Assembly (NCBI GenBank): GCA_045628525.1
Contig: JAZQPJ010000056.1
Span: 615-64,614, forward strand
Direction: 5' to 3'
DNA from: Bacteroidales bacterium
GTDB taxonomy: Bacteria > Bacteroidota > Bacteroidia > Bacteroidales > UBA3663
Length of the DNA: 64,000 nt
Every line of letters begins with the position of its first letter. The first letter of the stretch is position 1. The notes under the pieces were generated by a model, which saw only the letters and a list, made by a program, of their open reading frames with translations, searched no databases and was not told the origin of the DNA. Shown in pieces: positions 4,885 through 51,848 of the stretch. A program made the position numbers and the translations under genes.

Positions 4885-5187
4885 TGTAAATCTGCAGAGC
4901 GGCCGCAAATGCTTTTTTTCTCCCTCTGCAAACCTGCAGAAGCATGGCTACGACGTTTTTGTGCTTTTGCAAATCTGCGGAGAGGCGTCAAAAGTTTTTT
5001 CCATGCCTCTGCAAACCTGCGGAGAGGCGCCAAAAGTTTTTTTCATGCCTCTGCATATCTGCTGAGAGGTGCCAAAATTATTTTCCGAGCCTCTGCAAAT
5101 CTGCAGAGCGACGCCAAACGTTTTTTCCTGCCTCTGCAAATCTTCAGAAGCATTCCTAAAGTTTTTGGCAAGTTTTTGCAACTTTAC
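4885..5187. repeat. Intergenic tandem array of ~8 degenerate 41-42 bp units with a palindromic core
   Basis: Core TGCAAA(C/T)CTGC, degenerate in some units, starts at 4885, 4927, 4968, 5010, 5052, 5094, 5135 and 5177. Example unit: GCCTCTGCAAACCTGCGGAGAGGCGCCAAAAGTTTTTTTCAT. Confidence 0.9.
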
Positions 5188-5225
5188 AATGGCCCTTTGA
5201 ATAGAAAAAACAAACAATTACAACT

Positions 5226-7385
5226 ATGAAGTATTACCCAATCATCTGCGCAGCAGCCGCTACAGCCATCTCATTGAGCAGCTGCTCGAACAACCAAAAC
5301 GCCAACAACATGGATAACCCATTCCTGGTAGAGTCAACCCTGCCGCACGGTGCCTTCCCATTCGATCAGCTGAAGACCGAGCATTATAAGCCAGCCTTCG
5401 AGGCAGGCATCAAGGAGCACAACGAGGAGATCAACGCCATCATCGTGAACCGCGCCACTCCAAACTTCGAGAACACCATCGTAGCCCTGAATCGTGCCGG
5501 TTCGTTGCTCAATCGTGTGGAGTCGATCTTCTATAACCTCGTGGAGTGCGACGGTACCGACGAGATGCTGGCCCTCAGCGAGGAGCTCCAGCCAATGATG
5601 AGCAAGCACAGCCTCGAAGTGAGCCTCAACGAGCAGCTCTTCGAGCGCGTGAAGACCGTATGGAACAACTATCACGACACCGACCTGTGGGAGACCCTCT
5701 CGCTCGAACAGCAGCGACTGCTGAAGGAGACCTACGACGGCTATGTCCGTTCGGGTGCCACCCTGCAGGGCGAAGCTCGTGACCGCTGGCAGGTGATCAG
5801 CACCGAGCTCGACAGCCTCACCCTTGCCTACGGCCAGAACGTGCAGAAGGCTACCGCTGCCTGGACCTACCAGCTCGACCCAGAAAAGGGCGACATGGAG
5901 GGCCTGCCAGGCTTCGTGGTAGAGGCCTTGAAGCAGAACGACAACAAGCTCACCCTCCTGGCACCAAGCTACCGTCCATTCATGATGTACAGCAGCCGTC
6001 GCGACCTGCGCGAGATGCTCTACAAGGCATACAATGCCCGCTGTGTGGGTGGTGAGTTCGACAATACCAACAACATCCGCCGCATCGCCACCCTCCGTCA
6101 GGAGCGTGCCGAGCTGCTCGGCTATGACAACTTCGCACAGTATCGTGTGGAGAACAACATGGCACACACCCCAGAGGCCGTCAACAGCCTGCTCAACCAG
6201 TTGCTCGATGCCTACAAGAAGCCAGCCCTCAACGACGTGAAGGAGGTGGCTCAGCTGGCAGCCAAGGAGGGTGTCAAGGACCTGATGCCATGGGACTTCA
6301 GTTACTACTCAGAGAAGCTGAAGACTGCCAAGTATAATGTAAATGACGCTCAGGTGAAGCCATACCTCGCCCTCGACAAGGTGCGCACCGGCGTGTTCGG
6401 CCTGGCCAACCGTCTGTATGGCGTGACCTTCAACAAACTCGATGTGCCTGTCTATAACCCAGCCGCCGAGTGCTTCGAGGTGCTCGATGGCGACGGCACC
6501 TACCTCGGCCTGCTCTATACCGACTTCTATCCACGCGAGACCAAGCGTCCGGGTGCATGGATGACCGAGTTCAAGGGCCAGTGGCTTGAGGAGGATGGCA
6601 CCGATTCGCGTCCACACGTCCAGATCGTGATGTCGTTCAGCAAGGCTATCGGCAATCCTGGCGAGGAGGGCTACGTTCCTGCCCTCCTGACCTACGACGA
6701 GGCCACCACCTTCCTGCACGAGTTCGGTCACTCGCTCCACGGCTTGCTCACCAAGTGCACATACGCCTCATTGAGCGGCACCTCGGTATCGCGCGACTTC
6801 GTAGAGCTGCCATCGCAGTTCAACGAGAACTTCATGGGCAAGAAGGAGTTCCTCGACACCTTTGCCGAGAACTACGAGACCGGCGAGAAGATCCCACAGG
6901 AGCTCATCGACCGACTGCATGAGGCTGCCACCTTCCAGGCTGCCTACGCCTGTGTTCGTCAGCTCTCATTCGGCATGCTCGACATGGCCTTCCACTCACT
7001 CGGCAAGGGTCAGCAGAATGGTGCCACCGAGATCGACCAGCGTTACCCACAGCTCCAGAACGTTGAGCAGTTCGAGGCCGATGCCATGCTCCCAACCCAG
7101 GTATTGCCTCGCGTAGATGGTGCCATGATGGCGACTGCCTTCACCCACATCTTCAGCGGCGGCTATGCTGCCGGCTACTACAGCTACAAGTGGGCAGAGG
7201 TGCTCGATGCCGATGCTTTCGCCGTGTTCGAGAAGGAGGGTCTCTTCAACCCAGAGACAGCCAAGCGTTTCCGTCACATCCTTGAGAGTGGCGACACCAT
7301 CGATCCTGCCGAGCTCTATCGTCAGTTCAAGGGTTCTGATCCTGACATCAAGGCGTTGATGAAGAGGGACGGAATCATCAAGTAA
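5226..7385 (+). CDS. dcp: M3 family metallopeptidase (peptidyl-dipeptidase Dcp-like), lipoprotein
   Basis: Lipobox LSSC; NPFL, GAWM, HEFGHSLH zinc motif, DFVELPSQ, HIFSGGYAAGYYSYKWAEVL. Confidence 0.93.
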   Translation: MKYYPIICAAAATAISLSSCSNNQNANNMDNPFLVESTLPHGAFPFDQLKTEHYKPAFEAGIKEHNEEINAIIVNRATPNFENTIVALNRAGSLLNRVESIFYNLVECDGTDEMLALSEELQPMMSKHSLEVSLNEQLFERVKTVWNNYHDTDLWETLSLEQQRLLKETYDGYVRSGATLQGEARDRWQVISTELDSLTLAYGQNVQKATAAWTYQLDPEKGDMEGLPGFVVEALKQNDNKLTLLAPSYRPFMMYSSRRDLREMLYKAYNARCVGGEFDNTNNIRRIATLRQERAELLGYDNFAQYRVENNMAHTPEAVNSLLNQLLDAYKKPALNDVKEVAQLAAKEGVKDLMPWDFSYYSEKLKTAKYNVNDAQVKPYLALDKVRTGVFGLANRLYGVTFNKLDVPVYNPAAECFEVLDGDGTYLGLLYTDFYPRETKRPGAWMTEFKGQWLEEDGTDSRPHVQIVMSFSKAIGNPGEEGYVPALLTYDEATTFLHEFGHSLHGLLTKCTYASLSGTSVSRDFVELPSQFNENFMGKKEFLDTFAENYETGEKIPQELIDRLHEAATFQAAYACVRQLSFGMLDMAFHSLGKGQQNGATEIDQRYPQLQNVEQFEADAMLPTQVLPRVDGAMMATAFTHIFSGGYAAGYYSYKWAEVLDADAFAVFEKEGLFNPETAKRFRHILESGDTIDPAELYRQFKGSDPDIKALMKRDGIIK

Positions 7386-7467
7386 TTGAGTTTAGAGTGG
7401 AGAGTTTAGGGTTTAGAGTTGTTAACTCTACCCACTACTCTCAACTCTAAACTCTCAACTCTAAACT

Positions 7468-9576: not shown

Positions 9577-9637
9577 AAAAAATACCCTATCACTCCCTTT
9601 TCACTCCCCTTAAATACCCTAAAATACCCTTTAAAAA

Positions 9638-10102
9638 ATGACCAAGCAGGAACTTCGCAAACAGATACGTGAGGAATTGAAACGCATGAGTGCTGCCGAC
9701 CGCGACACCCAGTCACTCTTTATCTGCCTCCAGATATTAGGCACAGCAGAATGGCAGGAGGCGCAGACCGTGATGCTCTACAATGCCTTGCCCGACGAAG
9801 TTTCGCTCCAGCTCCTCATCGACGATGCCAGCGGATCGGGCAAAGAGGTGATCATCCCTGAACAGGGAGCCAATGCACCGATCATCCCCGACGAAGTGCT
9901 CACACAGATCGACTTTGCCATCATCCCTGGCCGAGCTTTCACTCGCAATGGCAAGCGCATGGGCCGTGGTGGCGGCTGGTACGACCGCATCCTGCCCAAG
10001 ATGAAGTGTCCACGTTGGGGCGTGGCCTTCAACTGCCAGATGAAGAAAGACATTCCTACCGACGAGTGGGATGTGCGGATGAACAGGGTAGTGACTGCAT
10101 AG
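9638..10102 (+). CDS. 5-formyltetrahydrofolate cyclo-ligase
   Basis: KQELRKQIR N-terminus and IIPGRAF...RMGRGGGWYDR signature. Confidence 0.93.
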   Translation: MTKQELRKQIREELKRMSAADRDTQSLFICLQILGTAEWQEAQTVMLYNALPDEVSLQLLIDDASGSGKEVIIPEQGANAPIIPDEVLTQIDFAIIPGRAFTRNGKRMGRGGGWYDRILPKMKCPRWGVAFNCQMKKDIPTDEWDVRMNRVVTA

Positions 10103-10132
10103 CAAGTCATATCCTTTCCTTATTTGAAACAA

Positions 10133-17744: not shown

Positions 17745-17857
17745 AATCTTTTGTTGTATTGTTAATGTGTTAATTTGTTAATATGTTAATTTGTTATGTA
17801 TCATTCGACACTAAAAAAACAACATATTAACAAAATAACAAAACAACGCGAAGCGTT

Positions 17858-19222: not shown

Positions 19223-19450
19223 GGCTGTATTGAATTACAAATTACTAATTACAAATGACTGTAGTTTGACTTGACCGCAGCAATGTAGTGATAATTGCGG
19301 TGCAAAGATAACGATTTTTGTTGGGAAAACAAAACATTTGGGAGAAAAAGTGAGGGTTTTCTTGCTCATTGCCCAAAATTTTAGTAACTTTGCAGCGTCC
19401 AACAGGAAACAAGTATTCTGTAATTTGTAATCTGTAATCCGCTCAGCGAC

Positions 19451-24085: not shown

Positions 24086-26359
24086 CTACTGCGCCACTGC
24101 CATCATGGCGCTGACCTCAGGCACTCGCTGCACCTGGCCGTTGATGGCATAGCCAGCGCGGATCATGTCGTAGATTACTCCACGCTTGGCCACCTCCTGC
24201 TCCTTGAATCCGCGAGGATAGAAAGAGTTGATCAACGGAGCATTATTGAGCTTGAAATTGTCGCTGTTGAAGTCATCGACAAAGAGATTTGGCTGAATGA
24301 GCGTGATGCCGTAACGTCCGAGCAGGGCAATGGTCTCAGATGCGGCTACCTTGAGGCTATCCACTGGGATGCCGGTGCGCTTCACCTCGGCAAGGAAGTC
24401 GGGCGAGATGGCGCTATAGGCGTTGAGACGCAACAGCTCGGCAATCCATGAGTAGTTGTTTTCAAGGGCCTGGCGCATATTCTCCTGCATCAGGTTGTAG
24501 AGGCCGTCCACCGTCTTCGAGTCGGGCTCCTCGCCCTGCAGGATGCTGCGGTCGAACCACGACATGAAGCTGACGAACTTCTGTGCCAGATGCAAGGTCA
24601 GCATGTGGTAATTGTTGTCGGCATTGTATGCCTCGACCCCCTCCTTCATCAGCATCACGTGTTCCTCGATGTGTGCCAATGAGGCCTGCAAGGCATTGCG
24701 GCTGATCTGGAGTGGCAATTGGAGCTGCTCGTTCAGATACTCCGCATGGGCACGAACAGTTGCGATCTCAGCCGTTGCTTGTTCCGTCACCTGCTGCATC
24801 TGCTTTTGCACCGCCTCGACCTCAGCGGCTGACTGTTGCTTGGCGGTCTCGATCGCCTCTTCCGCCTGCTGCCGTACGGCAAGGACGGATGCCTCTGCCT
24901 GTTCTGATGCTTGCTGGCGTGCGGCTGCAATCTCGGCAGCGGCCTGTTGCTGCACTTTGGTCACATCAGCAGCGGCTTGCTGCTTGGCTGCCATCACCTC
25001 GACCTCGGTTTGCTGCTGCAGCGATGCAAGCTTTGCCGATGTATCCTGACGCACAGTGGTCAGTTCATTCTGCACCTGTGCCAAGGCACGGGCAGCGTCA
25101 TCCTTGACACTCTGCAACTTCTGTGCGTAATCTGCCTCTGCATTGGCAAGCAACTGCTTTCCTGCCGACACTGCGGTCTCAACATCCGTGAGGTGTGATC
25201 TACGCTCGGTCTCCAGATCACCCTGCATCTGAACCAGCTCATTCTGCTTTTGCTGCACTACCGTACGAAGCGACTCTATCTGCTTTTGGAGTTCTGGGTT
25301 CGGATCAATACGAACCTCAACCGTCTTCTCCACGATCTTCTCGACTGGCTTCTCAACAATCTTTTCGACTATTTTCTCAACAGGCACCTCTACGCGCTTC
25401 TCGACAATCTTTTCGACCACCTTCTCAACAGGCACCTCCACGCGCTTCACGACAATCTTCTCGACCACCTTCTCGACAGGCACCTCCACGCGCTTTTCGA
25501 CGATCTTTTCGACGACTTTCTCAACAGGCACCTCCACGCGCTTCTCGACAATCTTGACGGTTTGATCGACAATAGGTACTCCCATTAGCGGTTCCGTCTG
25601 GATTGTTTTGTGGCGTTCACGATAGAACAGATAACAGCCCAATCCGATAGCAGCCAAAACAAGCAGCCAAAGCAGCACACGCTTTACCGAACTGCCCTCG
25701 GACACAGCCTCGCCATCGCTGGCTGCCTTCTCTAACAGAGGCTGGGATTTCTCCACATCCTTACCGGCATCCGCCATCGGCTGCTGCTCCTCGGGCGCTG
25801 GTTCTCTCACAGTGCCGCCCAATGCCACGATCGCCTCTTTGGGTGAGTTCTCGTCCAACATGCGCAGCTGTATCGGTCGCCTCATGCTGTCGTTGTTCTC
25901 CAGGCGGAACCACAAGTTTGCCTGACGAACGCTATCGATGCGGAAGTAGATATGATACTGCATGTTCCTAACACGAGTCACCATGAACTCTCGTTGTGAA
26001 GAACCCTGCTGTATTCGGCGATAATCGTATGTCGTGCTTCGTCCTCGGTCAAACGTAATTACACGATATTCATGCGTATTCTTGTCTCGCATATCGTCGC
26101 TCGATTCATTTACGACCTTTACGAACGACCGATTCGTATAAAGGACTAGCTGGTTTTGCCCATCACGTATCAAGTAGCCCGTCGGCTTTCCCTGTGCATC
26201 ATTCTTCACCTTAAAGGGTTCGTCAGCATTATCGATGCACAAACCGACGAAGCAAGTATCCGATTGAGCATTGGCTAACGAAGCGAATCGCATCACGGGG
26301 AGCAGCGAGAGCACGACGAGGGCCAGGAGGACAGACAATATCTTGTTTCTATTATTCAT
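24086..26359 (-). CDS. Membrane-anchored hypothetical protein: signal peptide, TM, VEVPVEK repeats, long coiled coil, GrpE-like C-terminus
   Basis: Start taken at MNNRNK; TM segment [19 protein letters not shown]; four [16 protein letters not shown]-type repeats; Q/A/E-rich helical region. Confidence 0.8.
25340..25555 (-). repeat. Intragenic 48-bp tandem repeat (16-aa VEVPVEK unit)
   Basis: ACAGGCACCTC(C/T)ACGCGCTT recurs four times at 48-bp spacing. Confidence 0.9.
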
Positions 26360-28777: not shown

Positions 28778-28914
28778 TTTTTTGCTGTTTTTGGGGCAAA
28801 AAACATGTCATATGTGTACGATTTCGTGCTGCAAGACGTCTGAAAAAAGTCCCATAAGTTAGGGAAACCTTGCCGCGGACTTGCCGGGAGCTCTCAGCCA
28901 TGCCGCAGGCTGCA

Positions 28915-33760: not shown

Positions 33761-36700
33761 ATGAGCAAACAAGACCCCCACAAGCCCCTCAACATCTACC
33801 GTGCCTCGGCCGGTTCGGGCAAGACCCATCTGCTGACCGGTTTCTACATCAAGCTGCTGTTCCTGTCCGAACTGCTGCCCGAAACGCACTCGGGCGAGAT
33901 GCACTTCAACGAGGTGCTGGCCGTGACCTTCACCAACAAGGCCACCGCCGAGATGAAGAGCCGCATCATCGAGGAACTGCACCTGCTGAGCCAGACGCCC
34001 CGCAAGTCGCACTACTGGGACGAGATCAGCCACCAGGGCGAGCGACCGGAGCAGCAGATACGCGATAAGGCGACGGAACTGCTGGTGCAGATACTGAACG
34101 AATATTCATCGTTCAACATCTCGACCATCGACAGTTTCTTCCAGAAGATCGTGCGCAGCTTTGCACGCGAGCTCAATGTGCCGGGCAACTATGAGGTGGA
34201 ACTCGACAGCAAGAGCGTGGTGGAGGCCTCGGTGGCCAGCTTCCTCGACAAGCTGGATCCGCGCCATGACCGCAGCCTCTTCGACTGGATGCTGCGCTTC
34301 TCTGACCAGCGCAGCGAGAAGGGCGAGGGCTGGGACTTCCGCGCCAACCTGCTCGAACTGGCCGACAAGGTGCTGGGAAGCGAGCAATACCGTCGCCACA
34401 GCAAGCAGATCAAGGACTTCACCAGCGACAAGCAGCAGCTGGAACAGTACGAAAAGATGTTGCGCAACATCGTCAGCGACTGGCGCAGACAGCTGGTCAG
34501 CATCGGCGAGCAGGGGCAGGAACTGCTGACCCGGTACGCCATCGACAAGAAGGAGCTAAGCAATGGAGGATCAGGCACTACATCCGTTTTCCCCACATGG
34601 GCCAAAGGCATTGAGAAGAACCCCTCAGAGGGCACCTGGTTCAACAAGATCCTGGAGAGTCCTGACAAGCTCTTCAAGCCCGAGTCCGGACGCGTAGGCT
34701 CCGAGCTGCAGCACCAGCTTGTGGGGCTGATGCAGGCAGGTATGGAGCTCTTCCAGGGCGACACCTACACGAACTACGTCACCGCCACCTTCATCCAGCA
34801 GGACTTCTACGAACTGGGCATCATCGCCAATATCGACGAGGAGCTGCGCACCTACTGCAACGACCACAACAAGATGCTGCTCAGCTCCGTCACCGAGCTG
34901 CTGGCCAAGCTCATCGGCCCTTACGATGCCCCGTTCGTGTACGAGAAGACAGGTTCGCACCTGAAGTCGTACATGATTGACGAATTCCAGGACACCTCGG
35001 GCCTGCAGTGGCACAACTTCATGCCGCTGGTGAGCAACGCCCTGAGTCAGGGCTACCAGAACCTCATCGTGGGCGACGTCAAGCAGAGCATCTACCGCTG
35101 GCGTGGCAGCGACTGGGGACTGCTCGACTCCGAAATCAGTCATTACGAGCCGCAGCGCCACAACGACAACGACGAGGAACTGCGCACCAACTGGCGATCG
35201 CTTCCTGCCATCGTGGAGTGGAACAACCGCTTCTTCACCGCCATTGCCCGGCAGCTCGACGCAATGGCCGGCACACAGCAGATACAGCGCATATATAAAG
35301 ATGTGTGCCAGGCCCTTCCTGCAGACAAGACCCGGCAGGGCGCTCCCACCGGCATGGTGAGCGTACAGCACCTGATTCCGCTGGGCGAGGATGGCGAGCC
35401 CCTGGCATCGCCCACCAAGGATGACCTGGTGCGCGAGGCACGCCGGCAGCTGCCCCTGCAAGTGATCCGACTGCAGCAGCAGGGGTTCGAGCCGAGCGAC
35501 ATCGCCATCCTGTGCCGACGCAAGGAGGAGTGCCGCCAGATGGCCGAGGCTTTGCTGCAATACCGCCAGGAGCATCCCGAGTGCCCCTACCCCATGGACA
35601 TCATCTCCGACGAGGCCCTGCAGCTGGGTGCCCGCCCTGTGATACAGACGCTCATCAGCATGATGCAGCTGCTGCAATGCCCCGAGTCGGAGCTGCAGCA
35701 GGCCATCACCTGGAGCAACTACCTGCAACTGGAGGGCCTCAGCACCGATCAGGCACTGCAGCGCTACTTCCAGCTCACCCCCGAGCAGCGCACCCTGCTG
35801 CCACAGATGGCCTTCCGTCCGCTCTACGAACTCACCGAGCTGCTGATCGACCGCCTGCCCCAGAGCGTCGTGCACGAGGAGGCAGCCTTCCTGCAGGCCT
35901 TCCGCGACGTGGTGCTCGAATACTGCCACTCGCACAATGCCGACCTCAGCGCCTTCCTGGAGTGGTGGGAGCTGTCGGGCTACAAGAAGGCCATCGCCAC
36001 CCCCGACGCCATGAACGCCATCCAGATCATGACCATCCACAAGTTGAAGGGCCTGGGCATGCCTGCCGTCATCATCCCTTACGCCTCGTGGGAGATGGAC
36101 ATCAGCACCACACACGAGCAGATCATCTGGTGCGAACCCACCAGCGGCCCCTTCAAGCGCGACATACTGCTGCCCATCAAGCTCGACAAGCGTCTCACCG
36201 ACACCATCTTCTGTCAGGACTTTGCCGAAGAGCGCCTGCGCTCCATCATCGACAATCTCAACACCGCCTACGTGGCCTTCACCCGCCCCAAGGAGGCCAT
36301 GGTGATCCTGTGTCCCGAGCCGAAGGAGAAGGGCACCAGCATGCTCGAATACCTGCTCACCGACTACTGCACCCATCTGCCCGACAGCGGAGAATACTGC
36401 ATCTCCGGCGAACTCTCCATCCCGCTGAGCGTGGCGCCACACCAATTTGAGATTGGTGAATCAGGAATTAGGAACGAGGATTTAGGAATATATAATGTAC
36501 CCCCCGCCACCGACCCGCAGCACAAACTTGACTCCTCACTCCTAATTCCTCAATCCTCATTCAGCGAAGCGCCTGATTCCTCATTCCTCAACCCTAACTC
36601 CTCATTGGAAGGGGCAGGCGCAGGAAATGCTCCGCAGCCCCTGCCTGCCCTCTCCATCATGCACAGCCCCCTGCAGCAGGACAGCGAGGCACGTCGCCGT

Positions 36701-37202: not shown

Positions 37203-37406
37203 AGCTCTCGGACGGTCCGACCTGATGCTAGGTCGGACCGTCCGAGAGCTCTTTTAGTCCGACTCAGCACCAGGTCGGACTGTCCGACACCTCCGTTAGT
37301 CCGACTCAGCACCAGGTCGGACTGTCCGACACCTCTGTTAGTCCGACTCAGCACCAGGTCGGACCGTCCGACACCTCCGTTAGTCCGACTCAGCACCAGG
37401 TCGGAC
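37203..37406. repeat. Intergenic array of five 42-bp palindromic units
   Basis: GTCCGAC-N10-GTCGGAC starts at 37215, 37257, 37299, 37341 and 37383. The first unit extends to a perfect 21-bp inverted repeat (37203-37223 and 37230-37250). Confidence 0.95.
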
Positions 37407-37675
37407 TTTTGTTGATGCACATTTTTGACACAATGTACGAAGTGTCAAAATCCGAGACACACAGAACATGAATCTCTGCAGTAAACCAACTTTTGCACAC
37501 TTGCAGAGATGCGAACGCGTACACGCTGGCATCTCTGCGCACCAGCAACGCAAAACCCTGGCCACGGAGGTGGTCAGGGTTGACTTTTTGGCATTCAGCG
37601 CAGCACTTGGCTGCGGAGAAGCTGTATGTACTGACGGCACTCGATCAGGAGTGCTCGTCGGAATCAGTTCACTGA

Positions 37676-39355
37676 TTACAGAGCGTTGATAACCGAAGCG
37701 AACTTGGCGAACTCGAGGTCGGTAGCAGCCTTAGCCTTGAGAGCAGAGTTCATAGAGATAGCCTTCTGGAGGTTGCTCTGAACGTCAGCGCTGTTGTTGG
37801 TGCGGGCAGCAACGATAGCCTGGAGGTAGTAGGTCATGGCGTCCTTGTTGGCAACGGCCTGGAGGGTAGCCTTGGCAGCGCTGTAGTTCTGAGCACAGAT
37901 CTGTGCTACGGCAGCGTTGTTGCTCTTCACATCGCCGAAGCTCTGGATAGCCTGAGCATACTGGCCCTTGTTGGTGAGGAGGGTACCCATAGCCTCGCCG
38001 TACTCAGCGCACTGGCCAGCCTTGCCGAGGTAAGTCTGGGCAGCCTGCCAGTCGGCAGCGTTCATGGCTACGAGGCCGAGGTTCATGTTGGCCTGAGCAT
38101 TGTTGGCGTCCTTGCCGAGGATGTTCTTCCAGATCTGCTCAGCCTCAGCGATCTTGCCCTGTGCGAAGTAGAGACCAGCGAGGTCGTTGGCAGCACGGTA
38201 GTCAGAAGAGAACTTGCCCTGGGTGTACTTATAGATGGCCTCCTTGTCGGCAGCTGGCTTGCTGGCGAGGTAGAGGAGCTCCTCGAGGGTGAGGGCATCC
38301 TTGTCGCTCTTCCAGAGGTCGGCGATCTCCTCGTCGGTGTGACCGATGTTGCGCACGGTAGCGGTCACCTTAGAGTAACGGAGCTGTGGCAGGATCTCGT
38401 CCTCGAGCTCCTTGTAGGCAGCTGAGAGGTTGCGGATCTCCTGCTCGCGCTGAGCTGGGTCGCTGATGCGGCTGAGCACATTGAGCACGAGCTGCTTGTC
38501 CTGGATTGAAGAAGCCTCGACGAGGGCCTTGAAGCCGTCCCAGTCCTCAGCAATCTGCTCTGGGGTGATCTGGCCCTGCATCTTAGCCTTCTTGAGGAAC
38601 TTGTTGAGGTAGGCAGCTGATGACTTCTCACGACCAGCAGCGAGCTGCTCGTTGAGGCTGTACTTACCCTCAGGCGATGCGGTGCTGAGCATGTCGATGC
38701 CAGCGAGCTCGCGACGCTCCTGATCCTTGGTAGCCACGATAGCATCCTGCAGGTCCTTTACCTCCTGCTTCTTCTCGCTCTCGGTAGCGCGCAGGTTGGT
38801 GCTCTGATACTGATAGATCATGGTGGCGATGTACTTGTCGAAGGTATCCTTTACGAAGTTGTCAGCAGCGTATGCTGGAGTGTTGCTGGCAGCGCTGGCA
38901 AGGCTCTCAGTGGCGATAACGCCATCAGCTACATATACGCTTGGAAGAACGATCTCCTTGCCCTTAACGTCAGCGAGGAAGTCGAGGCGGAGCTTAGAAG
39001 CAGCCATCTCGTCCTGATAGAGGAAAGAGGCGCGGAATACAGCGGTGCCACCATACTTGTAGTTAACCTCCTGGTCATTGCCGCTTACCTTCTCGCCCTG
39101 GAAAGTCACAGGGGTGCCCTTGGTCTCACCGGCAGCGTACTCGAGTACTGGGGTGATGGTGAGGGTAGCCTTCTTGTTAAAATACTTCTCAGGATAGGTT
39201 ACGGTGATGGTTGCATTCACCTGACCACCCTGCTCAACGAGAGGATTTGGATTGCAGACGAAGTTGTCGGCAGTCAGTGGATCGAGCTTGCCACATGATG
39301 ATACTACAGCGAGCATCACGGCAGCACAAACGGTCAGAAAGATTTTCTTGATCAT
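37676..39355 (-). CDS. Conserved Bacteroidales TPR-domain lipoprotein
   Basis: Lipobox VSSC; ASPEG...N..LA..R OmpA-like segment; EDWDGF; C-terminal TPRs; strongly biased codon usage. Confidence 0.85.
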   Translation of the reverse strand: MIKKIFLTVCAAVMLAVVSSCGKLDPLTADNFVCNPNPLVEQGGQVNATITVTYPEKYFNKKATLTITPVLEYAAGETKGTPVTFQGEKVSGNDQEVNYKYGGTAVFRASFLYQDEMAASKLRLDFLADVKGKEIVLPSVYVADGVIATESLASAASNTPAYAADNFVKDTFDKYIATMIYQYQSTNLRATESEKKQEVKDLQDAIVATKDQERRELAGIDMLSTASPEGKYSLNEQLAAGREKSSAAYLNKFLKKAKMQGQITPEQIAEDWDGFKALVEASSIQDKQLVLNVLSRISDPAQREQEIRNLSAAYKELEDEILPQLRYSKVTATVRNIGHTDEEIADLWKSDKDALTLEELLYLASKPAADKEAIYKYTQGKFSSDYRAANDLAGLYFAQGKIAEAEQIWKNILGKDANNAQANMNLGLVAMNAADWQAAQTYLGKAGQCAEYGEAMGTLLTNKGQYAQAIQSFGDVKSNNAAVAQICAQNYSAAKATLQAVANKDAMTYYLQAIVAARTNNSADVQSNLQKAISMNSALKAKAATDLEFAKFASVINAL

Positions 39356-39578
39356 GATTGTTTTGGAAAATAAAAAATTGGTTTTGTTTAGTATTTGGGC
39401 GCAAAGATAATAAAAATATTTGAATTTTGCACATTTCGGAGCAAAAAAAGAGCGCGCACGGTGCAATTTTGATGGTTTTGTAATGAGGAATGATTATTTG
39501 TGAAGGGTTTTAAGGGTTTTAAGGGGAGTGAAAGGGGAGTGAAAGAGGAGTGAAAGGGGAGTGAAAGGGACAAAACTC

Positions 39579-40475
39579 TTATCTCACCTTATTTCGGGGA
39601 TGGAAGGTGAGGATTTCCTCGCGGAGCATCTGCTTATCGACCTTGGTGTAGATCTCGGTGGTGGAGATCTGTTCGTGGCCGAGCATCATCTGGATGGCGC
39701 GCAGATTGGCACCTCCTTCGAGCAGATGGGTGGCAAAAGTGTGGCGGAAAGTGTGGGGCGAGACCTCCTTGCGGATGCCGGCCTCCTGGCAGTAGCGCTT
39801 CACGATGTTGAACACCATGATGCGCGACAGGCTGCGCCCCCAGCGGTTGAGGAAGACGTAGTCCTCGTAGCCGCGCTTCACATCGAGCTCGTACTGGAAC
39901 GACTGATACAGCCGGATCTGTTTCAATGCCTCGTCGGAGATGGGCACGATGCGCTCCTTGCGCCCCTTGCCGAGCACCTGGATGAAGCCCTCGTCGGCAA
40001 AGATGTGCGACCAGCGCAGGTTGGTGAGCTCGGACACACGGAGGCCGCAGCTGTAGAGGGTCTCGAGGATGGCACGGTTGCGCTGGCCATCCCACGTGGA
40101 GGGGTCGGGGGCCTCGACTATGCGGTTCACCTCCTCGACGGTGAGCACGGTGGGTATCTGGTCGGGCAGTTTTGGGGCGTCGATGCAGTCGGTGGGATCA
40201 CGCTCGATGACGCCCTCCAGCCGCAGGAACTTGTAGTAGGAACGTATGCCCACCAGGATGCGCTTCTGCGAGGTGGGCGAGATGCCAAGATCGTGCAGGC
40301 TCCAGATGAACGACTCCACCTCCATAGCCTCCATCTCAGTGAGTTCCTTGCCCAGGGCATCGGCATATTTCTGCAATTTGGCGATATCACTCAAGTAAGC
40401 TTGGACGGAATTTTCGGTAAAGTTTCGCTCAAATTTTAAATATGTATAATATTTTGTGAGGTTATTTTTGTCCAT
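39579..40475 (-). CDS. xerD: Tyrosine recombinase XerD
   Basis: LYSCGLRVSEL, GKGRKER, HTFRHTFATHLL and LGHEQISTTEIY motifs; divergent from aroQ in a housekeeping context. Confidence 0.9.
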   Translation of the reverse strand: MDKNNLTKYYTYLKFERNFTENSVQAYLSDIAKLQKYADALGKELTEMEAMEVESFIWSLHDLGISPTSQKRILVGIRSYYKFLRLEGVIERDPTDCIDAPKLPDQIPTVLTVEEVNRIVEAPDPSTWDGQRNRAILETLYSCGLRVSELTNLRWSHIFADEGFIQVLGKGRKERIVPISDEALKQIRLYQSFQYELDVKRGYEDYVFLNRWGRSLSRIMVFNIVKRYCQEAGIRKEVSPHTFRHTFATHLLEGGANLRAIQMMLGHEQISTTEIYTKVDKQMLREEILTFHPRNKVR

Positions 40476-42571: not shown

Positions 42572-43285
42572 ATGCAAAAAGAACTGCGATACGAAGAGAT
42601 AGCCGATGCCCTGGACGAATACGTCCGCGCGCACATCGACCCCGAGCCTGAGCTGCTGCACCAATTGCAGCGGCTCACGCATTTGCGCCTCACCTATCCG
42701 CGCATGTGTTCGGGGCATCTGCAGGGCCGTCTGCTCAAGATGCTCTGCCAGATGGCGGGGGCACATCGCATCCTGGAGCTCGGCACCTTCAGCGGCTACT
42801 CTGCCCTCTCGATGGCCGAAGCCCTCACGCCCGACCCCGTCACCGGCCAGTGCGAGCTGCACACCATCGAGGTATTCGACGAGCTGGAGGACTTCCTGCA
42901 GGAGGTGATGCAGAAAGCCGGCACATTGGGCGAACGCATCCACCTGCATTTCGGCGACGCTTTGACGCTGATACCTTCGGTAAGTGAGGAGTTAGGAGTG
43001 AGGTGTGAGGAAAGCGCAGCGCCCTGGGATGTCGTTTTCATCGATGCCGACAAGCGCATCTACGACCAATACTACGAACTGGTGCTCCCCCATGTCCGCC
43101 CCGGCGGCCTCATCCTGGCCGACAACACGCTGTGGGACGGCAAAGTGCTCGACCCCTCGCCCAAGGCATCGGACACCCAGACCCTCGGTCTGCAACGCTT
43201 CAACGACCTGGTGGTCAGCGATCCTCGCGTCGAGAAAGTCATCCTCCCGATGCGCGACGGCCTCACCATCATACGAGTGAAATGA
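42572..43285 (+). CDS. SAM-dependent O-methyltransferase
   Basis: ILELGTFSGYS, VFIDADK, GGLILADN and RDGLT motifs. Confidence 0.93.
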   Translation: MQKELRYEEIADALDEYVRAHIDPEPELLHQLQRLTHLRLTYPRMCSGHLQGRLLKMLCQMAGAHRILELGTFSGYSALSMAEALTPDPVTGQCELHTIEVFDELEDFLQEVMQKAGTLGERIHLHFGDALTLIPSVSEELGVRCEESAAPWDVVFIDADKRIYDQYYELVLPHVRPGGLILADNTLWDGKVLDPSPKASDTQTLGLQRFNDLVVSDPRVEKVILPMRDGLTIIRVK

Positions 43286-43383
43286 TAAAATGATATAATT
43301 ATAAAATGATAGAATTCCTCTCCGGTTTGCAATTCGGCAGCAATTCTTTCATTTTTTCATTCTTTAATTCTATAATTCCAAAT

Positions 43384-47887: not shown

Positions 47888-47991
47888 AGTATAATGTTTT
47901 TCGTGTACCCCCAAAATCCCTCCAATACTCTTTAGAAATCCTTCATAGAAATCAAAGGAAATCAAAAAAACAGGATTCAGGGATTGATTTC

Positions 47992-49305: not shown

Positions 49306-49335
49306 AAGGTGATAATATAAAAGTGGTGTATTCTA

Positions 49336-49956
49336 TTATACAGCGCTCAGCTTGGCGCCAGTGAGTGGCTTGGCCTCCTGCTCGCGGAACTTGATGGTCT
49401 GCGTCTGCCAGTCCATTGACTCCACGATGGCGAGCGACTCCACGCGGTAGCCCTCGGCACGGAGTTCGCGTCCGCCCTTCTGCTGGCCCTTCTCCACAGC
49501 GATGCCGATGCCCATCACCTCACCGCCAGCCTGATGCACCAGGTCGATCAGGGCGTGGGCTGCCTCGCCGTCGGCCAGGAAGTCGTCCACGATCAAGACC
49601 TTGTCCGTGGCGTGCAGGTAGGGACGCGAGATGAAGATGTTGTTCATCTTCTTGTGCGTAAACGAATAGGCCTGCGACACGTACTTGTCGTCGGTGCTGT
49701 TGGCCGTCTGGCTCTTCTTGGCAAAGACCACAGGCACGTCGTACAGATGTCCGAGCAACGTGGCAATGGCGATACCGCTGGCCTCGATGGTCAGTACCTT
49801 GTTGATCTCCACACCCCGGAAGCGACGCTTGAACTCGTAGGCCATCTGGCGCATGATGTCAATGTCAATCTGATGATTGAGGAAGCTGTCCACTTTCAGG
49901 ATGTTACCCTCCTTGATGCTGCCATCCTGGAGGATTTTTTCTTCGAGGAAATTCAT
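49336..49956 (-). CDS. xpt: Xanthine phosphoribosyltransferase
   Basis: LKVDSFLNHQID, TIEASGI and IVDDFLA motifs. Confidence 0.95.
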   Translation of the reverse strand: MNFLEEKILQDGSIKEGNILKVDSFLNHQIDIDIMRQMAYEFKRRFRGVEINKVLTIEASGIAIATLLGHLYDVPVVFAKKSQTANSTDDKYVSQAYSFTHKKMNNIFISRPYLHATDKVLIVDDFLADGEAAHALIDLVHQAGGEVMGIGIAVEKGQQKGGRELRAEGYRVESLAIVESMDWQTQTIKFREQEAKPLTGAKLSAV

Positions 49957-50020
49957 GATAGTATGCGTATTTCTTATAGATTGTTTTACAGGTAATGAGC
50001 CCAAAGGGTTGCAGGTCGGA

Positions 50021-51295
50021 TCACTTCAGTCCGATGTACCCCACGCCGAACGACTTGCGCTTGACCAGAGCCTTGATGCGGAACCAGGCATCGACCAGCG
50101 GGAGGTAGAGGTCCATGAACAGCGGCCAGGCGATGAACCGACGCAGTCGGAGCGATTTGGCGAAGGCCGACTCGGCCCAGACCATCAGGATGGCGCGTAT
50201 CAGCAGCAGGGCAAGCGCCACCCCGAAGAGCACCCAGCCTGCTGATTGCAGAGACGGGACATCGGCTGAAGATTCGAGCTGCAGCATGCCCGGCTGCAAG
50301 GCCAGCACGAGGCCCAGGGCAGCCAAAGCCAGGCCGGGCAGCACGGTGAGGTAACGCGTCACATCGTCGATGACCTTGACGCAGACTGGTGCCATGGCAT
50401 ATAGGCGCGACGTGAAGCCGCGGTTCAGGCGCTCCATGCTCCAGCCCAGAAAAAGGGGTGAGGTCTGATCGGTGAGCAGACTGTCTGCACGGCACTCGAT
50501 AGCCACGTTCGAGCCACGCGCCACGTCCGACACGAAGAGGTCGTCCTCGCCCGGCTGGATGTGCAGGTGGCGCTGGTAGCCCTGACTGCGGTTGGCATAG
50601 AAGGTCGATTTGCGGAACGCCATGTTCTGCGCCCAGCCTGCAAACGGACGCACAGCCAGCGAGAGGCCGAACATGCCCGTCAGGCGATGAAAGAGGTCGT
50701 ACTGTGCGAAGCGCGAGAGGAAGCTGGCACGGCGTTCGTAGGCCACGGGGCCGAGCACCACCTCCACGCCGGGATTCTGGAAGTGCTGCACCATGTTGGC
50801 CAGCCACTTGTCCGACGTAGGCAGACACTGCGCCTGCGTCATCACAACCAGCTCATAGTGAGCCGCCTTGGTGCCGAGCAGCACGGCCAGCTTGCGGTGG
50901 CTCATGGTGCGCACACGCTCGTCGATGCGGCTGTGGAACAGGTGCTCGAAACGCTGGTCCATCATCGTCAGGACATCCTGCGTCTCGTCGCGCGACGTAT
51001 CGTCGATCACAATGACCTCATAGGCAGGATAGTCCTGCGACAGGAGCACGGGCAGATTGCGCACCAGAGCCTCGCCCTGATTGTGGGCATACACCAGGAT
51101 GCTGACGCCCGGCTGCGGACCGGCAGGCTGTCCCAGTTGGGCAGCAGCCTCCTTCTGTTGACGACGGAGATGACGCAACGGGCGGCTCCACACCACCAAC
51201 TGCAATACGATTTGCACCAGCCACGCCACCACAAAGACGACGGCCAGTGCCACAAACCACCATGGACTATCGGATAGTATATTCATAATGTTCAT
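50021..51295 (-). CDS. Family 2 glycosyltransferase, membrane-bound
   Basis: PGVSILV, QDYPAYEVIVIDD and GEDDLFV motifs; N- and C-terminal transmembrane segments. Confidence 0.88.
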   Translation of the reverse strand: MNIMNILSDSPWWFVALAVVFVVAWLVQIVLQLVVWSRPLRHLRRQQKEAAAQLGQPAGPQPGVSILVYAHNQGEALVRNLPVLLSQDYPAYEVIVIDDTSRDETQDVLTMMDQRFEHLFHSRIDERVRTMSHRKLAVLLGTKAAHYELVVMTQAQCLPTSDKWLANMVQHFQNPGVEVVLGPVAYERRASFLSRFAQYDLFHRLTGMFGLSLAVRPFAGWAQNMAFRKSTFYANRSQGYQRHLHIQPGEDDLFVSDVARGSNVAIECRADSLLTDQTSPLFLGWSMERLNRGFTSRLYAMAPVCVKVIDDVTRYLTVLPGLALAALGLVLALQPGMLQLESSADVPSLQSAGWVLFGVALALLLIRAILMVWAESAFAKSLRLRRFIAWPLFMDLYLPLVDAWFRIKALVKRKSFGVGYIGLK

Positions 51296-51624
51296 TTTTC
51301 GGGTGCAAAGTTAATGTTTTTTTACAAAAATTCCAAATTTTTTGAGCACTTTTTTCAGTGTTTCTGCAGAAGATGGCAAGCAAAGGAGCTTTACTCACAC
51401 ACACGCGCAATTGAATATAACATGCACGCCCGCCCACCTCACGCCTCCGCCTGCCCAGGCACCTGTCCAGGCACCTGCCCAGGCACCTGCTCAGGGACGC
51501 GCACTCTTTCTTAGCAGAAAGAGAAATTAAAAAAAGAGAAAGAGAAAGAGAGAGAGAATTTGGGTGGAGGTAAAGATGCGTGTATGCGCGCATGCGTAAA
51601 GGAGTTCGGGAAGGCGGAAACCGG

Positions 51625-51848
51625 TATCCGAGACATCGAAAAGTCTGTCACGGGTTCGGGACAAGCTTTTCGAGATGTCGAAATGGTTGCCACAGGTTCG
51701 GGACGAACTTTTCGAGATGTCGAAACGGTTGCCACAGGTGCGGGACGAACTTTTCGAGATGTCGAAACGGTTGCCACAGGTTCGGGACAAACTTTTCGAG
51801 ATGTCGAAACGGCCGACGCAGGCTCAGACCAGACTTTCGAGATGTCGA
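51625..51848. repeat. Intergenic array of six 41-42 bp units with palindromic core TTTCGAGATGTCGAAA
   Basis: CGAGA core starts at 51629, 51671, 51713, 51755, 51797 and 51838. Confidence 0.95.

Follow-up and report, generated by a model that had tools for sequence, protein, structure and literature searches.

Palindromic arrays in the window

The window, a stretch of 64,000 nucleotides from an uncultured gut Bacteroidales, carries three intergenic arrays of palindromic units that an earlier note had described as sharing a 42-bp period. Tandem Repeats Finder (TRF) recovers each of them at period 42, all the palindromes described are present in the sequence, and Pfam names five of the six genes flanking the arrays. 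Array 1 (positions 4886–5195; family 2, nine arrays) occupies the entire spacer between the hisS stop at 4871 and the ATG of an M3 peptidase gene at 5226 (Pfam: HisRS and M3 peptidase), starting 10 bp past the stop and ending about 30 bp before the ATG. Its TRF core (4968–5143, 4.2 copies, 83% match) is lengthened by degenerate copies, read in the 42-bp register, to about 7.4 units of 41–42 bp, where the earlier note gave roughly eight; each unit consists of a foot palindrome of the J type described below (CTGCA-AATC-TGCrG) and a AAAAGTTTTTT centre. As single-stranded DNA, this array folds better than shuffles by a weak margin (z = −1.9).

Array 2 (37203–37406; family 3, six arrays, 11 loci by nhmmer) has five units in the 42-bp register, as claimed. 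It lies in a convergent spacer 3′ of a UvrD-like helicase gene (Pfam), the other neighbour being a 596-aa ORF that Pfam leaves unnamed. The array opens with a 44-bp near-perfect palindrome centred at 37226.5. After it come 4.2 units of 42 bp with GTCGGAC/GTCCGAC arms (TRF: 37230–37406, 4.2 copies, 94% match), and TTTTGTTG follows the last hairpin; the array folds strongly (z = −9.3). A solitary palindrome, TTTTGACAC-N10-GTGTCAAAA, read from the sequence at 37423–37450, adjoins the array and is of a type that recurs in mosaic arrays (C62:846-866) and in the related genome G007. Farther along, a ‘palA’ module (GCAGAGATGCGAACGCGTACACGCTGGCATCTCTGC, 37503–37538, dyad at 37520.5, located by BLAST and register reading) comes after J-like CTGCAG/TTGCA motifs; the genome contains palA at 25 or more loci, frequently within 84- or 126-bp mosaic arrays.

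Array 3 (51625–51849; family 1, 17 arrays, 32 loci by nhmmer) lies between two divergently oriented genes that Pfam names, one for a GT2 glycosyltransferase (minus strand) and one for a class A PBP (plus strand), and also folds strongly (z = −4.1). Its unit is TTCGA-GATG-TCGAA plus a 28-bp linker (GTTGCCACAGGTTCGGGAC...), and the 42-bp period holds (TRF: 51649–51848, 4.8 copies, 89% match), with about 5.3 units rather than the six counted before. The 43-bp family 0 is represented by part of one unit (...GGGAAACCTTGCCGCGG...), which stands alone in intergenic DNA at 28857–28891.

A genome-wide population with a 42-bp period

When unit lengths were checked across the 3.27-Mb genome, a sharp spike appeared at 42, far above chance, with harmonics at 84 and 126: 60 of the 802 TRF arrays have period 42, 18 have period 84 and 5 have period 126, against 6 at period 41, 12 at 43, one at 40, none at 44 and 3 at 45. 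Multiples of 42 account for 103 of 144 intergenic arrays, compared with 10 of 31 genic ones (period ≥28). The unit-to-unit spacing was 41–43 bp in every case (203/203, from four families that are not independent observations). On a gene map made with a crude ORF caller, 95 of 106 arrays are intergenic, as are all 42 extra loci retrieved by nhmmer, and the population amounts to about 123 loci and 23.7 kb, or ~5% of the intergenic DNA of the genome. The types of spacer are occupied roughly in proportion to their numbers, with divergent (promoter) spacers holding 11 of the 87 intergenic arrays that are flanked by called genes on both sides.

Anatomy of the bricks

The module of these arrays, here called a brick, is 41–43 bp long and is bordered by a short foot palindrome of the scheme TT-xxxx-nn(nn)-x′x′x′x′-AA (J or P1; for example, CTGCAGATCTGCAG or TTCGAGCNCTCGAA). 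A second, variable dyad lies about 21 bp away and is extended in some families, so that the whole brick becomes a palindrome of roughly 38 bp. Bricks are arranged head to tail and always in register, either uniformly, as in arrays 1–3, or as mosaics with higher-order repeats of 84 or 126 bp, in which unlike modules are joined through a common junction palindrome; the mosaic clusters C55, C95, C39, C73 and C62 hold the 42-bp register. Intergenic DNA contains 68 copies of the J motif and genes contain 11 (a ~38-fold difference by density), and the 33 J–J spacings of up to 300 bp comprise 23 of 41/42 bp, seven of 82–84, two of 126 and one of 167. Adjacent dissimilar palindromes tend to fall on a 21-bp lattice (103/229 versus 14.7% expected).

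Families 0, 1, 2 and 4, with 62 of 95 arrays, are linked into one superfamily (single linkage at a score exceeding all 1500 shuffles). It includes arrays 1 and 3, which have like 14-bp foot palindromes (TTGCAnnnnTGCAA versus TTCGAnnnnTCGAA), whereas array 2 enters only at a looser threshold. The description of the three arrays as sequence-unrelated is apt to the eye but only partly right: arrays 1 and 3 have a superfamily in common, and the mosaics share a junction palindrome. Within this one genome, palindrome sequences differ among at least eight families, and hairpins range between 14 and 38 nt in size while the period is unchanged. Indels within arrays amount to 1.7%, versus 17.5% for mismatches. 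In 36 of 55 strong palindromes the pairing of the stems stops at most one base pair short of the centre, beyond the hairpin-loop limit, and an internal 10–11-bp periodicity is mainly limited to family 0. Solitary P1-P2-P1′ hairpins occur just 3′ of stop codons, and a composite of 280–364 bp is found at no fewer than eight loci with 81–87% identity, its ends differing by whole modules. A search for signatures of transposition found no terminal inverted repeats around the bricks, nor target duplications, nor any conserved leader or tail.

Related genomes and the search for a partner gene

Arrays of 41–43 bp with other sequences are present in G007, G010, G013, G043, G045, G014 and G051; the genus has the period in common, not the sequences. 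The period was not found in the other families sampled, two sampled congeners had no arrays in 96–200 kb, and plasmid and phage collections yielded no match. The families of G010, G013 and G043 have real loops of 8–13 nt and no J motif, yet measure 41–42 bp, and arrays in G007 and G051 are placed after a stop codon but before the canonical bidirectional terminator. Comparison of orthologous loci, a check suggested in the earlier note, revealed variation in presence and absence: array 1 is not present at the two nearest hisS loci of relatives, and two G007 arrays are missing at the syntenic G000 sites, one of which retains a single palindrome. The lattice of unlike palindromes is weaker elsewhere (11/37 in G007, 9/29 in G010 and 11/59 in other families). 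The array-free genome G016 has 13 of 35 on the 21-bp lattice.

The earlier note had also suggested looking for a co-occurring gene, but no RAYT, reverse transcriptase or IS110 gene tracks the arrays. Y1_Tnp (RAYT) is missing from the array-rich G000, G007 and G010 and found in G003 and G014, RVT_1 is missing from G000 and found in the array-free G016 and G044, and IS110 is missing from five of five genomes tested, although such absences are not proof because all the genomes compared are MAGs, 84–96% complete. Genes bracketed by elements (2/2315) were not above chance.

Origin of the arrays and of their constant length

The possibility that the arrays are remnants of genes for 14-residue repeat proteins, raised in the earlier note, can be considered effectively refuted. 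The length does equal 14 codons, one or more frames are open in 93% of the 42-bp arrays, and 10 of 31 genic arrays of period ≥28 fall on multiples of 42; but shuffled-unit arrays are open nearly as often (87%, with 2.79 open frames of six per array versus 3.33), the period is 41 or 43 in 26 of 106 arrays, the units are palindromic, and the arrays are mostly intergenic. The same verdict applies to an assembly artefact, given that copies differ by substitutions, that related arrays recur in independently assembled genomes and that four other public runs have contigs up to the array borders. It is distinctly unlikely that the arrays act at the RNA level, as putative hairpin stacks in 3′/5′ UTRs or operon spacers (terminators, barriers to 3′–5′ exonucleases or precursors of hairpin-sized RNAs). 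Such a role would suit the intercistronic position of array 1, the G007/G051 arrays, which would be in 3′ UTRs given their place before terminators, the solitary P1-P2-P1′ hairpins followed by T-runs that resemble terminators, the TTTTGTTG after the last hairpin of array 2, and the strong folds of arrays 2 and 3. However, the processed hairpin RNAs proposed earlier leave no strand signal: family 1 shows no orientation bias relative to flanking genes (5 versus 6), and sense-strand stem mismatches show no excess of G:T over A:C (51 versus 47, P = 0.76). Moreover, arrays also occupy divergent spacers, many palindromes lack a loop, Rfam gave no match to the arrays, and hairpin size varies under a constant period. 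On this evidence the bricks, non-coding and extragenic, would be elements of the DNA rather than the RNA level.

Selection by the host for a phased lattice is possible, if unlikely. Dyads two turns apart would be putative same-face sites for a dimeric or oligomerising DNA-binding protein of a nucleoid-associated, insulator or partition-like kind, or else the in-phase period would make the DNA intrinsically curved; the sequence could change freely provided that the dyads keep their symmetry and spacing. One precedent is iterons with a spacing of about 22 bp. Another, architectural, is sopC of plasmid F (PMC3177203). The spacing of 41–43 bp in all units measured and across unrelated families and species, the unlike palindromes on the 21-bp lattice, the symmetry through the palindrome centre and the absence of strand bias are all consistent with this explanation. 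Against it, no single sequence-specific protein could read the different palindromes of at least eight families, orthologous sites of different species have gained or lost arrays, two sampled congeners showed none in 96–200 kb, spacers are occupied roughly by their number, the 10–11-bp periodicity is mainly confined to one family, and no candidate protein was found. Cas1–Cas2, which measures repeats, and RAYT, which copies REPINs, are precedents for an active ruler enzyme, here a dedicated recombinase, nuclease, HUH enzyme or reverse transcriptase of a type not recognised that would make or insert fixed-length hairpin units. We regard this as very unlikely, even though it would account for one unit length in dissimilar families and several species and for multi-module blocks dispersed to many loci, and the symmetry through the centre suggests inverted-duplication chemistry. 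The UG27 reverse transcriptases of Bacteroidota phages, which make short hairpin cDNAs from ncRNA arrays (bioRxiv 10.64898/2026.09.22.753630), demonstrate that the phylum has systems able to make hairpins, but differ in unit size (about 150 nt), cDNA length and their RT-adjacent prophage setting; the distribution of Y1_Tnp, RVT_1 and IS110 and the chance-level count of bracketed genes likewise speak against an enzyme of this kind.

Our preferred reading, held with about even confidence, is that arrays 1–3 belong to a single population of palindromic bricks, non-coding, extragenic and restricted to this lineage, which grows by whole-module slippage or unequal recombination. It builds on the observed anatomy and distribution of the bricks, the lack of a coding or strand signal and the presence or absence of arrays at orthologous sites. 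The border palindrome of each brick would be a direct and inverted repeat of the next one and, being both, would allow slipped-strand mispairing and unequal recombination to add, delete and shuffle whole bricks, which may have generated arrays, mosaics and solitary P1-P2-P1′ hairpins; blocks of bricks would also be copied into new intergenic sites, although the search for a transposition signature or an associated gene, which found neither, speaks against this reading. As with REP/BIME and BOX, DNA would be the level at which the elements act or simply persist.

Under this brick model, the constant period would in part be a legacy of a common module design, kept by in-register exchange, as suggested by the superfamily and by the mosaics with their common junction palindrome. 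Shared junctions and descent are not the whole reason, since congener families without the J motif and with real loops still measure 41–42 bp. Furthermore, indels, when set beside mismatches, are not so rare that pure inheritance would hold drift to ±1 bp, and a period within ±1 bp across dissimilar families and species points to an added constraint. This constraint is most likely helical phase, 42 bp being four helical turns of B-DNA, with dyads every two turns. The interpretation in the earlier note is partly supported. The genome-wide length distribution and the 41–43-bp arrays of congeners bear it out, but part of the constancy would come from inheritance and in-register recombination, and no RAYT, reverse transcriptase or IS110 gene accompanies the arrays; same-face phasing gains support from the lattice of unlike palindromes, but that lattice is weaker in the other genomes sampled.

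Relation to known repeat systems

The earlier note could assign the arrays to no described element class. The bricks can be placed near extragenic palindromic mosaics of the REP/BIME/BOX type, though they fall inside no named family. Like bricks, the REP/BIME elements of enterobacteria and the REPINs of Pseudomonas are short, high-copy extragenic palindromes in linker-joined mosaic clusters, species-specific in sequence and present or absent at orthologous spacers; proposals for their action involve DNA (gyrase, IHF) or the ends of mRNAs. REP/BIME palindromic units alternate in inverted orientation, whereas bricks repeat directly in tandem and keep strictly to a 42-bp (21-bp dyad) lattice. Bricks lack the GTAG or CGTC tag of REPs, as defined in PMC3733652 (GTAG/CTAC in 5/95 units, below shuffles). 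Unlike REP/REPIN systems, array-rich brick genomes have no RAYT gene. BOX of Streptococcus pneumoniae (boxA-(boxB)n-boxC) is likewise a modular intergenic repeat with one module, boxB, of about 45 bp, in a variable-number tandem array. BOX units are predicted to form stem-loops and vary in copy number among strains (PMC3049150). Bricks belong to a different phylum, comprise many families rather than a single boxB, and no conserved terminal modules such as boxA and boxC were found.

Within the Bacteroidales, the BrickBuilt MITE of Porphyromonas gingivalis (PMC4596501) is a spacer-free intergenic minisatellite at about 19 loci and, like the present bricks, dispersed and species-restricted, but with a 23-nt unit, leader and tail subunits and inverted-repeat ends, as opposed to palindromic units of 41–43 bp, no leader, tail or TIR found, about 123 loci and many families. 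sopC consists of 12 direct 43-bp repeats, and SopB binds the 16-bp inverted repeat that each of them contains (PMC3177203). It matches bricks in unit length and in having one palindrome per unit; in sopC and iteron arrays the binding sites are in helical phase. However, sopC is a single plasmid locus with a cognate ParB-type protein, whereas bricks occupy >100 chromosomal loci with many palindromes. In the Neisseria NIME (dRS3-RS-dRS3), variable repeat units of 50–150 bp stand in alternation with the conserved short palindrome dRS3, a phage attachment site, reminiscent of the J junction and the variable brick centres; the length of NIME units varies, whereas brick spacing is fixed and no integrating element was seen. 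Finally, UG27 arrays resemble bricks in their structurally conserved, sequence-diverse hairpin units, gained and lost in Bacteroidota, and are reported (bioRxiv 10.64898/2026.09.22.753630) to have units of about 135–167 nt, cDNAs of 50–100 nt of varied length and strand-specific RNAs, beside the RT in prophages, whereas the bricks lie in a genome without an RVT_1 match, measure 42 bp and are scattered among core genes.

A 42-bp period dominates the intergenic tandem repeats

Run on the entire source genome, that of an uncultured gut Bacteroidales (3.27 Mb in 97 contigs, 84% complete), Tandem Repeats Finder (TRF) returned 802 non-overlapping arrays, among which 60 had a period of 42 bp, against one at 40, six at 41, 12 at 43, none at 44 and three at 45 bp; the double and triple lengths, 84 and 126 bp, were represented by 18 and five arrays, respectively. 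The 42-bp period that the earlier note had noticed in three arrays of the window thus corresponds to a genome-wide excess. All loci with a TRF row of period 40-44 bp amounted to 106 arrays, totalling 16.1 kb, with 1.9-7.1 copies and a period of 42 (79 arrays), 43 (20), 41 (6) or 40 bp (1), and 95 of the 106 were intergenic according to a crude, home-made, ORF-based gene map (2315 genes, 86% coding). When all arrays with a period of at least 28 bp were considered, 103 of the 144 intergenic and 10 of the 31 genic ones fell on 42, 84 or 126 bp (±1-3). Profile searches with HMMs of four families placed successive units 41, 42 or 43 bp apart in 203 of 203 cases. Addition of the nhmmer matches and of the 84- and 126-bp arrays brought the collection to 123 intergenic element loci (23.7 kb), although arrays of the same family, and loci sharing one composite block, do not count as independent; the 42 loci overlooked by TRF were all intergenic. 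All genomes considered here are MAGs, 63-96% complete, in which repeats often remain unassembled.

In the window, TRF recovered all three arrays as cores of period 42 bp at 4968-5143 (array 1; 4.2 copies, 83% match), 37230-37406 (array 2; 4.2 copies, 94%) and 51649-51848 (array 3; 4.8 copies, 89%). Read in 42-bp rows and with degenerate copies included, they span ~4886-5195 (~7.4 units of 41-42 bp), 37203-37406 and 51625-51849, respectively, and the palindromes named in the earlier note are present in each, one per unit. Folding of the arrays as single strands of DNA surpassed that of shuffled versions by a wide margin for array 2 (z -9.3), clearly for array 3 (z -4.1) and weakly for array 1 (z -1.9). 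Each spacer type is occupied by one of the three: array 1 lies in a co-directional spacer between the genes for HisRS and an M3 peptidase, array 2 in a convergent spacer between those for a UvrD-like helicase and an unnamed 596-aa ORF, and array 3 in a divergent spacer between those for a GT2 glycosyltransferase and a class A PBP. Pfam gave names to five of these six flanking genes, and those named are housekeeping genes. The spacer of array 3 also contains, just upstream of the array (51450-51558), a 12-bp repeat, CCTGCCCAGGCA, in 3.8 copies and an AG-rich run of 4.3 copies of AAAGAG.

The arrays interrupt short-read assemblies: Logan contigs from four public DNA runs end at or near the window arrays, and none bridges them. 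One contig of run X7 (depth 9) connects 37538 back to 37493 via 38 other letters, which resemble a family-2 unit. Its structure is an 84-bp (2 × 42) tandem duplication of palA, a palindromic module near 37503-37538, plus a second unit, comparable to C62:586-835 of the source genome, and this single contig hints at a whole-module copy-number difference between strains.

Sequence families share a lay-out

Unit consensuses were compared by local alignment in every rotation and both orientations, with a null maximum of 24 in 1500 shuffles. At a score of at least 30, they formed families of 24, 17, 9, 6, 6, 4, 3 and 2 arrays and 24 singletons, with array 1 belonging to family 2 (9 arrays), array 3 to family 1 (17) and array 2 to family 3 (6). 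At a score of at least 26, above all shuffles, single linkage united families 0, 1, 2 and 4 and six singletons, comprising 62 of the 95 arrays; family 3 merged with the rest only at a score of at least 22. To the eye, the three window arrays share no sequence, as had been claimed, but strictly this does not hold, since arrays 1 and 3 merge at a score of at least 26.

The in-register alignment of family 1 yielded a 42-bp consensus containing TTCGAG-nn-CTCGAA, AAGyT, GTCC and, further on, TGGCAG. The same lay-out was recognized by eye in families 4 and 6 and in the 41-bp family of genome G007: a 14-bp foot palindrome of the form TT-xxxx-nn-x'x'x'x'-AA precedes another inverted repeat, whose arms are of the TTGCC/GGCAA type, and the stem letters of the foot vary between families with the symmetry preserved. 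Derivation of the unit from a heptamer (42 = 6 × 7) is ruled out by the depletion of unit autocorrelation at lag 7 (z -6.2), with lag 14 not raised. Autocorrelation peaks at lags 10-11 and 20-21 stem mainly from family 0, and no 10.5-bp internal periodicity was detected in singletons or in other genomes, which rejects it as a general property.

Unlike bricks join in register and palindromes fall on a 21-bp lattice

The 84- and 126-bp arrays combine unlike 42-bp bricks, that is, palindrome-bearing units of 41-43 bp, into higher-order repeats. Laid out in 42-bp rows, the mosaic clusters C95:20772-20900, C55:13030-13290, C39:20400-20740, C73:1438-1700 and C62:570-870 (contigs of the source genome) keep a strict 42-bp register. 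The mosaic brick consists of a ~38-bp palindrome with TGCA...TGCA borders and a 4-bp linker, so that every junction creates a 14-bp palindrome, J (CTGCA-GAT[C/G]-TGCAG), which also serves as the foot palindrome of array 1. Intergenic DNA contains the J core 68 times and genic DNA 11 times, and all 33 spacings of at most 300 bp between neighbouring intergenic J sites measure 41/42 (23 cases), 82-84 (7), 126 (2) or 167 bp (1). A composite block of 280-364 bp, made up of a family-0-like array, palA and an 84-bp module, recurs at at least eight loci with 81-87% identity, and its copies terminate at differing whole modules.

A scan of all intergenic DNA of the source genome identified 1230 palindromes in 457 kb. 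Adjacent palindromes of dissimilar sequence were separated by 21, 42, 63, 84 ... bp (±1) in 103 of 229 pairs, against 14.7% expected, with peaks at 21-22 (28 pairs), 42 (17) and 62-64 bp (38). Of the 37 arrays with a clear second dyad, 27 have their two best dyads separated by 20-22 bp within the unit. The lattice was weaker in the other samples, for which the scan also covered genes (11 of 37 pairs in G007, 9 of 29 in G010 and 11 of 59 in other families); the array-free sample G016 gave 13 of 35. Small peaks at 62 and 124 bp, of four pairs each, were seen in G016 (L141-L150), which has no 41-43-bp TRF arrays.

Unit length is shared with relatives, unit sequence is not

The closest relatives by HisRS are MAGs named 'Bacteroidales bacterium' with 89-90% identity, and the GTDB family of the source genome is represented by a single genus among the genomes compared. 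Samples of 85-400 kb from congeners contained five arrays of period 41, four of 42, one of 82 and two of 126 bp in G007 (400 kb); arrays of 41, 41, 42 and 126 bp in G010 (148 kb), with 10.7 copies (2.9 for the 126-bp array); one 42-bp array each in G013 (100 kb) and G045 (85 kb); 9.4 copies of a 42-bp and 8.3 of a 41-bp unit in G043 (92 kb); and a 43/86-bp family in G014 (380 kb). No 41-43-bp arrays were present in G016 (200 kb) or G044 (96 kb), and 300 kb from 16 other families of the order contained one 43-bp array. The congener units are unlike those of the source genome in sequence, and BLAST matches to array 2 and array 3 were among congeners in only 3 of 24 and 1 of 18 cases, respectively. 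Several congener families are ordinary hairpins (8-12-bp arms, 8-13-nt loops) without J, and still measure 41-42 bp. Searches of plasmids, phages, viral contigs and JGI metagenome contigs with array 2 or the palA core produced no match.

Comparison of orthologous loci, a check suggested in the earlier note, revealed that arrays are present or absent between relatives. Array 1 is missing at both nearest hisS loci, where the spacer contains an inverted pair of heptamer repeats in one and is short in the other, and no 41-43-bp array was found at hisS in any of 80 Bacteroidota loci. Two G007 arrays are without counterpart at the syntenic sites of the source genome, one of which carries a lone palindrome, TTGTGAATTCACAA, in place of the 5.7 units with TTGTGyryrCACAA in G007; neither of these two filled/empty pairs has a target duplication. 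Among the UvrD-like gene loci of 13 congeners, the spacer of array 2 holds a 42-bp array only in G051 (L199 621-860; 5.7 copies of ATGGACTCCACTGAACGATGTGGTACATGCCATCATCTCGGG), which is unrelated in sequence to array 2 and sits in the interval from the orthologous stop codon to a bidirectional terminator. This coincidence may be due to chance, and conservation of the occupied spacer was rejected on the basis of the 1 in 13 frequency.

No partner gene and partial likeness to known repeats

The co-occurring gene envisaged in the earlier note did not emerge: neither RAYT nor reverse transcriptase nor IS110 tracks the arrays. The RAYT domain Y1_Tnp (PF01797) is absent from the array-rich G000 (the source genome), G007 and G010 (84-86% complete) and present in G003 and G014; RVT_1 is absent from the source genome and present in the array-free G016 and G044; and IS110 was found in none of five genomes tested. 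On this distribution among incomplete MAGs, all three were rejected as partners. A REPtron-like bracketed gene was likewise rejected, with elements in both flanking spacers of only 2 of 2315 genes, below chance expectation; judged by eye from its sequence, one is RidA-like and the other RelE-like. All-against-all comparison of 240 flanks uncovered no common leader, tail or TIR, only neighbouring bricks being matched.

Knowledge of small extragenic palindromic repeats such as REP, BIME, BOX and NIME comes mainly from Proteobacteria and Firmicutes. As read from the sequence, the anatomy of the elements is that of a REP/BIME/BOX-type extragenic palindromic mosaic in an unusually regular form. They resemble REP/REPIN, whose imperfect palindromes measure 20-40 bp, in being extragenic imperfect palindromes in high copy (123 loci, palindrome scores above shuffles), but among the 95 unit consensuses only 3 contain GTAG and 2 CTAC (means in shuffles, 13 and 16), the CGTC/GACG tag is at chance level, the array-rich genomes have no RAYT gene, and the units are direct tandem repeats, whereas a REPIN replicates as an inverted doublet; the likeness is partial for some solitary elements, which are P1-P2-P1' hairpins. 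As in BIMEs, differing palindromic units and linkers are clustered, here as mosaics with a common J and 4-bp linkers. Unlike BOX- and BrickBuilt-type MITEs, the elements have no common termini (boxA/boxC or leader/tail, inverted-repeat ends, target duplication). In contrast to CRISPR arrays, copies match each other (83-94% identity) over their full 42 bp, the 'spacer' part as well, and the arrays are dispersed over >100 loci between housekeeping genes. With a sopC-like centromere or an iteron origin they share the architecture of tandem direct repeats each with a palindrome, but such origins occupy one locus per replicon beside parAB or rep, whereas here ~123 chromosomal loci with many sequences are flanked by genes that Pfam names as housekeeping and have no plasmid or phage match. 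The only close Bacteroidales precedent found is the BrickBuilt minisatellite, with a 23-nt unit, of Porphyromonas gingivalis (PMC4596501). The open-access literature searched contained no description of bacterial chromosomal intergenic 42-bp repeats of this kind.

Arrays act neither as coding sequence nor with a detectable strand preference

That the arrays are coding remnants or artefacts is barely conceivable. A 14-residue repeat protein is ruled out by the periods of 41 or 43 bp in 26 of 106 arrays, by the number of open frames of six (3.33 in 42-bp arrays versus 2.79 in shuffled-unit arrays) and by the intergenic location of 95 of the 106. A function as RNA hairpins is unlikely. The 87 of 95 intergenic arrays with a gene called on both sides comprise 60 in co-directional, 16 in convergent and 11 in divergent spacers (genome-wide, 1723, 244 and 251), and no spacer class is shunned, with divergent spacers under-used per base pair. 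Transcription of some arrays would nevertheless be predicted. Array 1 occupies a whole operon-like spacer; in G007 and G051, arrays are placed downstream of a stop codon and ahead of a canonical bidirectional terminator; and solitary P1-P2-P1' elements that directly follow stop codons and run into T-runs resemble terminators. The sequence of the units themselves carries no mark of a transcribed strand. Family 1 is oriented with co-directional flanking genes in five cases and against them in six. The stem positions on the sense strand of the 60 arrays between co-directional genes include 1301 Watson-Crick pairs, 51 G:T, 47 A:C and 77 others; G:T and A:C do not differ (p 0.76), so there is no sign of G-U tolerance. 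Moreover, 19 of 55 strong-palindrome arrays are paired right through the centre and 17 have one central pair open, a symmetry beyond what a hairpin loop allows. At gathering score, the 64-kb window had no match to any of 4227 Rfam families. By eye, a sigma-54 promoter (TGGCA-N-TTGC) was dismissed on a spacing one base short and an orientation not tied to genes, and Bacteroidetes promoter motifs (TTTG / TAnnTTTG) within units on misfitting spacing.

Retention of the period and its possible constraint

With a palindromic foot bounding each brick, its flanks are direct repeats and inverted repeats alike, at a distance of 42 bp, and slipped-strand mispairing and unequal exchange would then act on whole bricks, which would be gained, lost and shuffled. 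The expected outcome is arrays of like bricks, mosaics kept in register, lone hairpins and sets that are specific to a species. Selfish or structural DNA bricks that spread by slippage and recombination are a reading to which we give about even chances. This process explains the retention of a period already set, but does not fully explain why every family of several species measures 41-43 bp: within arrays, indels (1.7%) are about one tenth as frequent as mismatches (17.5%), so free drift should have widened the range. An extra constraint on unit length is therefore likely. Helical phase on double-stranded DNA, through same-face sites or in-phase curvature, would be the best candidate, in view of the 21-bp spacing of unlike dyads, palindromes that are symmetric through the centre and the lack of a strand signal. 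As an overall account, a phased lattice selected by the host is rather doubtful, and a ruler enzyme of a kind not yet known is more doubtful still. The sopC repeats, 43 bp long with one palindrome per unit (PMC3177203), serve as a precedent for helical phasing.

More speculatively, the genus might keep a chromosome-wide set of >100 intergenic dyad lattices, in which palindromes of any sequence stand exactly two helical turns (21 bp) apart in 42-bp bricks. If true, there would have to be a factor that acts in trans and recognizes geometry, not sequence. It could be a structure-specific chromosomal protein that binds cruciforms or hairpins or senses curvature, or a new enzyme that copies hairpins and carries its own 42-bp ruler; to our knowledge, neither has been described in bacteria. 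The system of this gut Bacteroidales genus is much more regular than the known small extragenic repeats, with 41-43-bp bricks that vary between species and families in sequence, not in length, that join in register as mosaics, and whose unlike palindromes fall on a 21-bp lattice. If brick length is set by helical phase or by a measuring protein, the arrays would offer, in bacterial chromosomes, a natural experiment on the geometry of DNA and a means of tracing that factor. In practical terms, they are probably strain-variable minisatellites of an uncultured gut lineage and could be used as typing markers.

Other repeats in the window and beyond

Several further repeats were noticed. At 39503-39569, a 9/11-bp repeat, AAGGGGAGTGA, is present in 4.5 copies; the surrounding bin (39170-39703) has a summed contig depth ~5-10 times that of its neighbours in four metagenome runs (420 versus ~40 in X1) and many loose contig ends and joints, and the repeat looks like a multi-copy or widely shared one. 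Away from arrays 1-3, a 48-bp repeat at 25316-25555 (4.3 copies, 89% match, 12/24-bp sub-periods) looks like a putative 16-residue protein repeat on the minus strand. Outside the window, arrays with low unit identity and a period of 72-74 bp in the source genome (C11:400-656 and 2575-3277) or 66 bp in G016 (L150 88-513) look like CRISPR arrays. TRF also reported, among the 802 arrays in 3.27 Mb, many of periods 7, 8 and 9 and their multiples. Inverted pairs of such short tandem repeats (7-, 8- and 9-bp units), for example 4.7 copies of GAGTTTA facing 4.4 of ACTCTAA, form long micro-repeat hairpins at gene ends, in the window at 7388-7420 with 7437-7467, 17759-17796 with 17812-17847, 19233-19260 with 19413-19439, 36458-36606 and 43280-43378, and elsewhere at L001:4385-4500. 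These pairs may be terminators built of repeats, and one such pair is found in the nearest relative, in the spacer equivalent to that of array 1.
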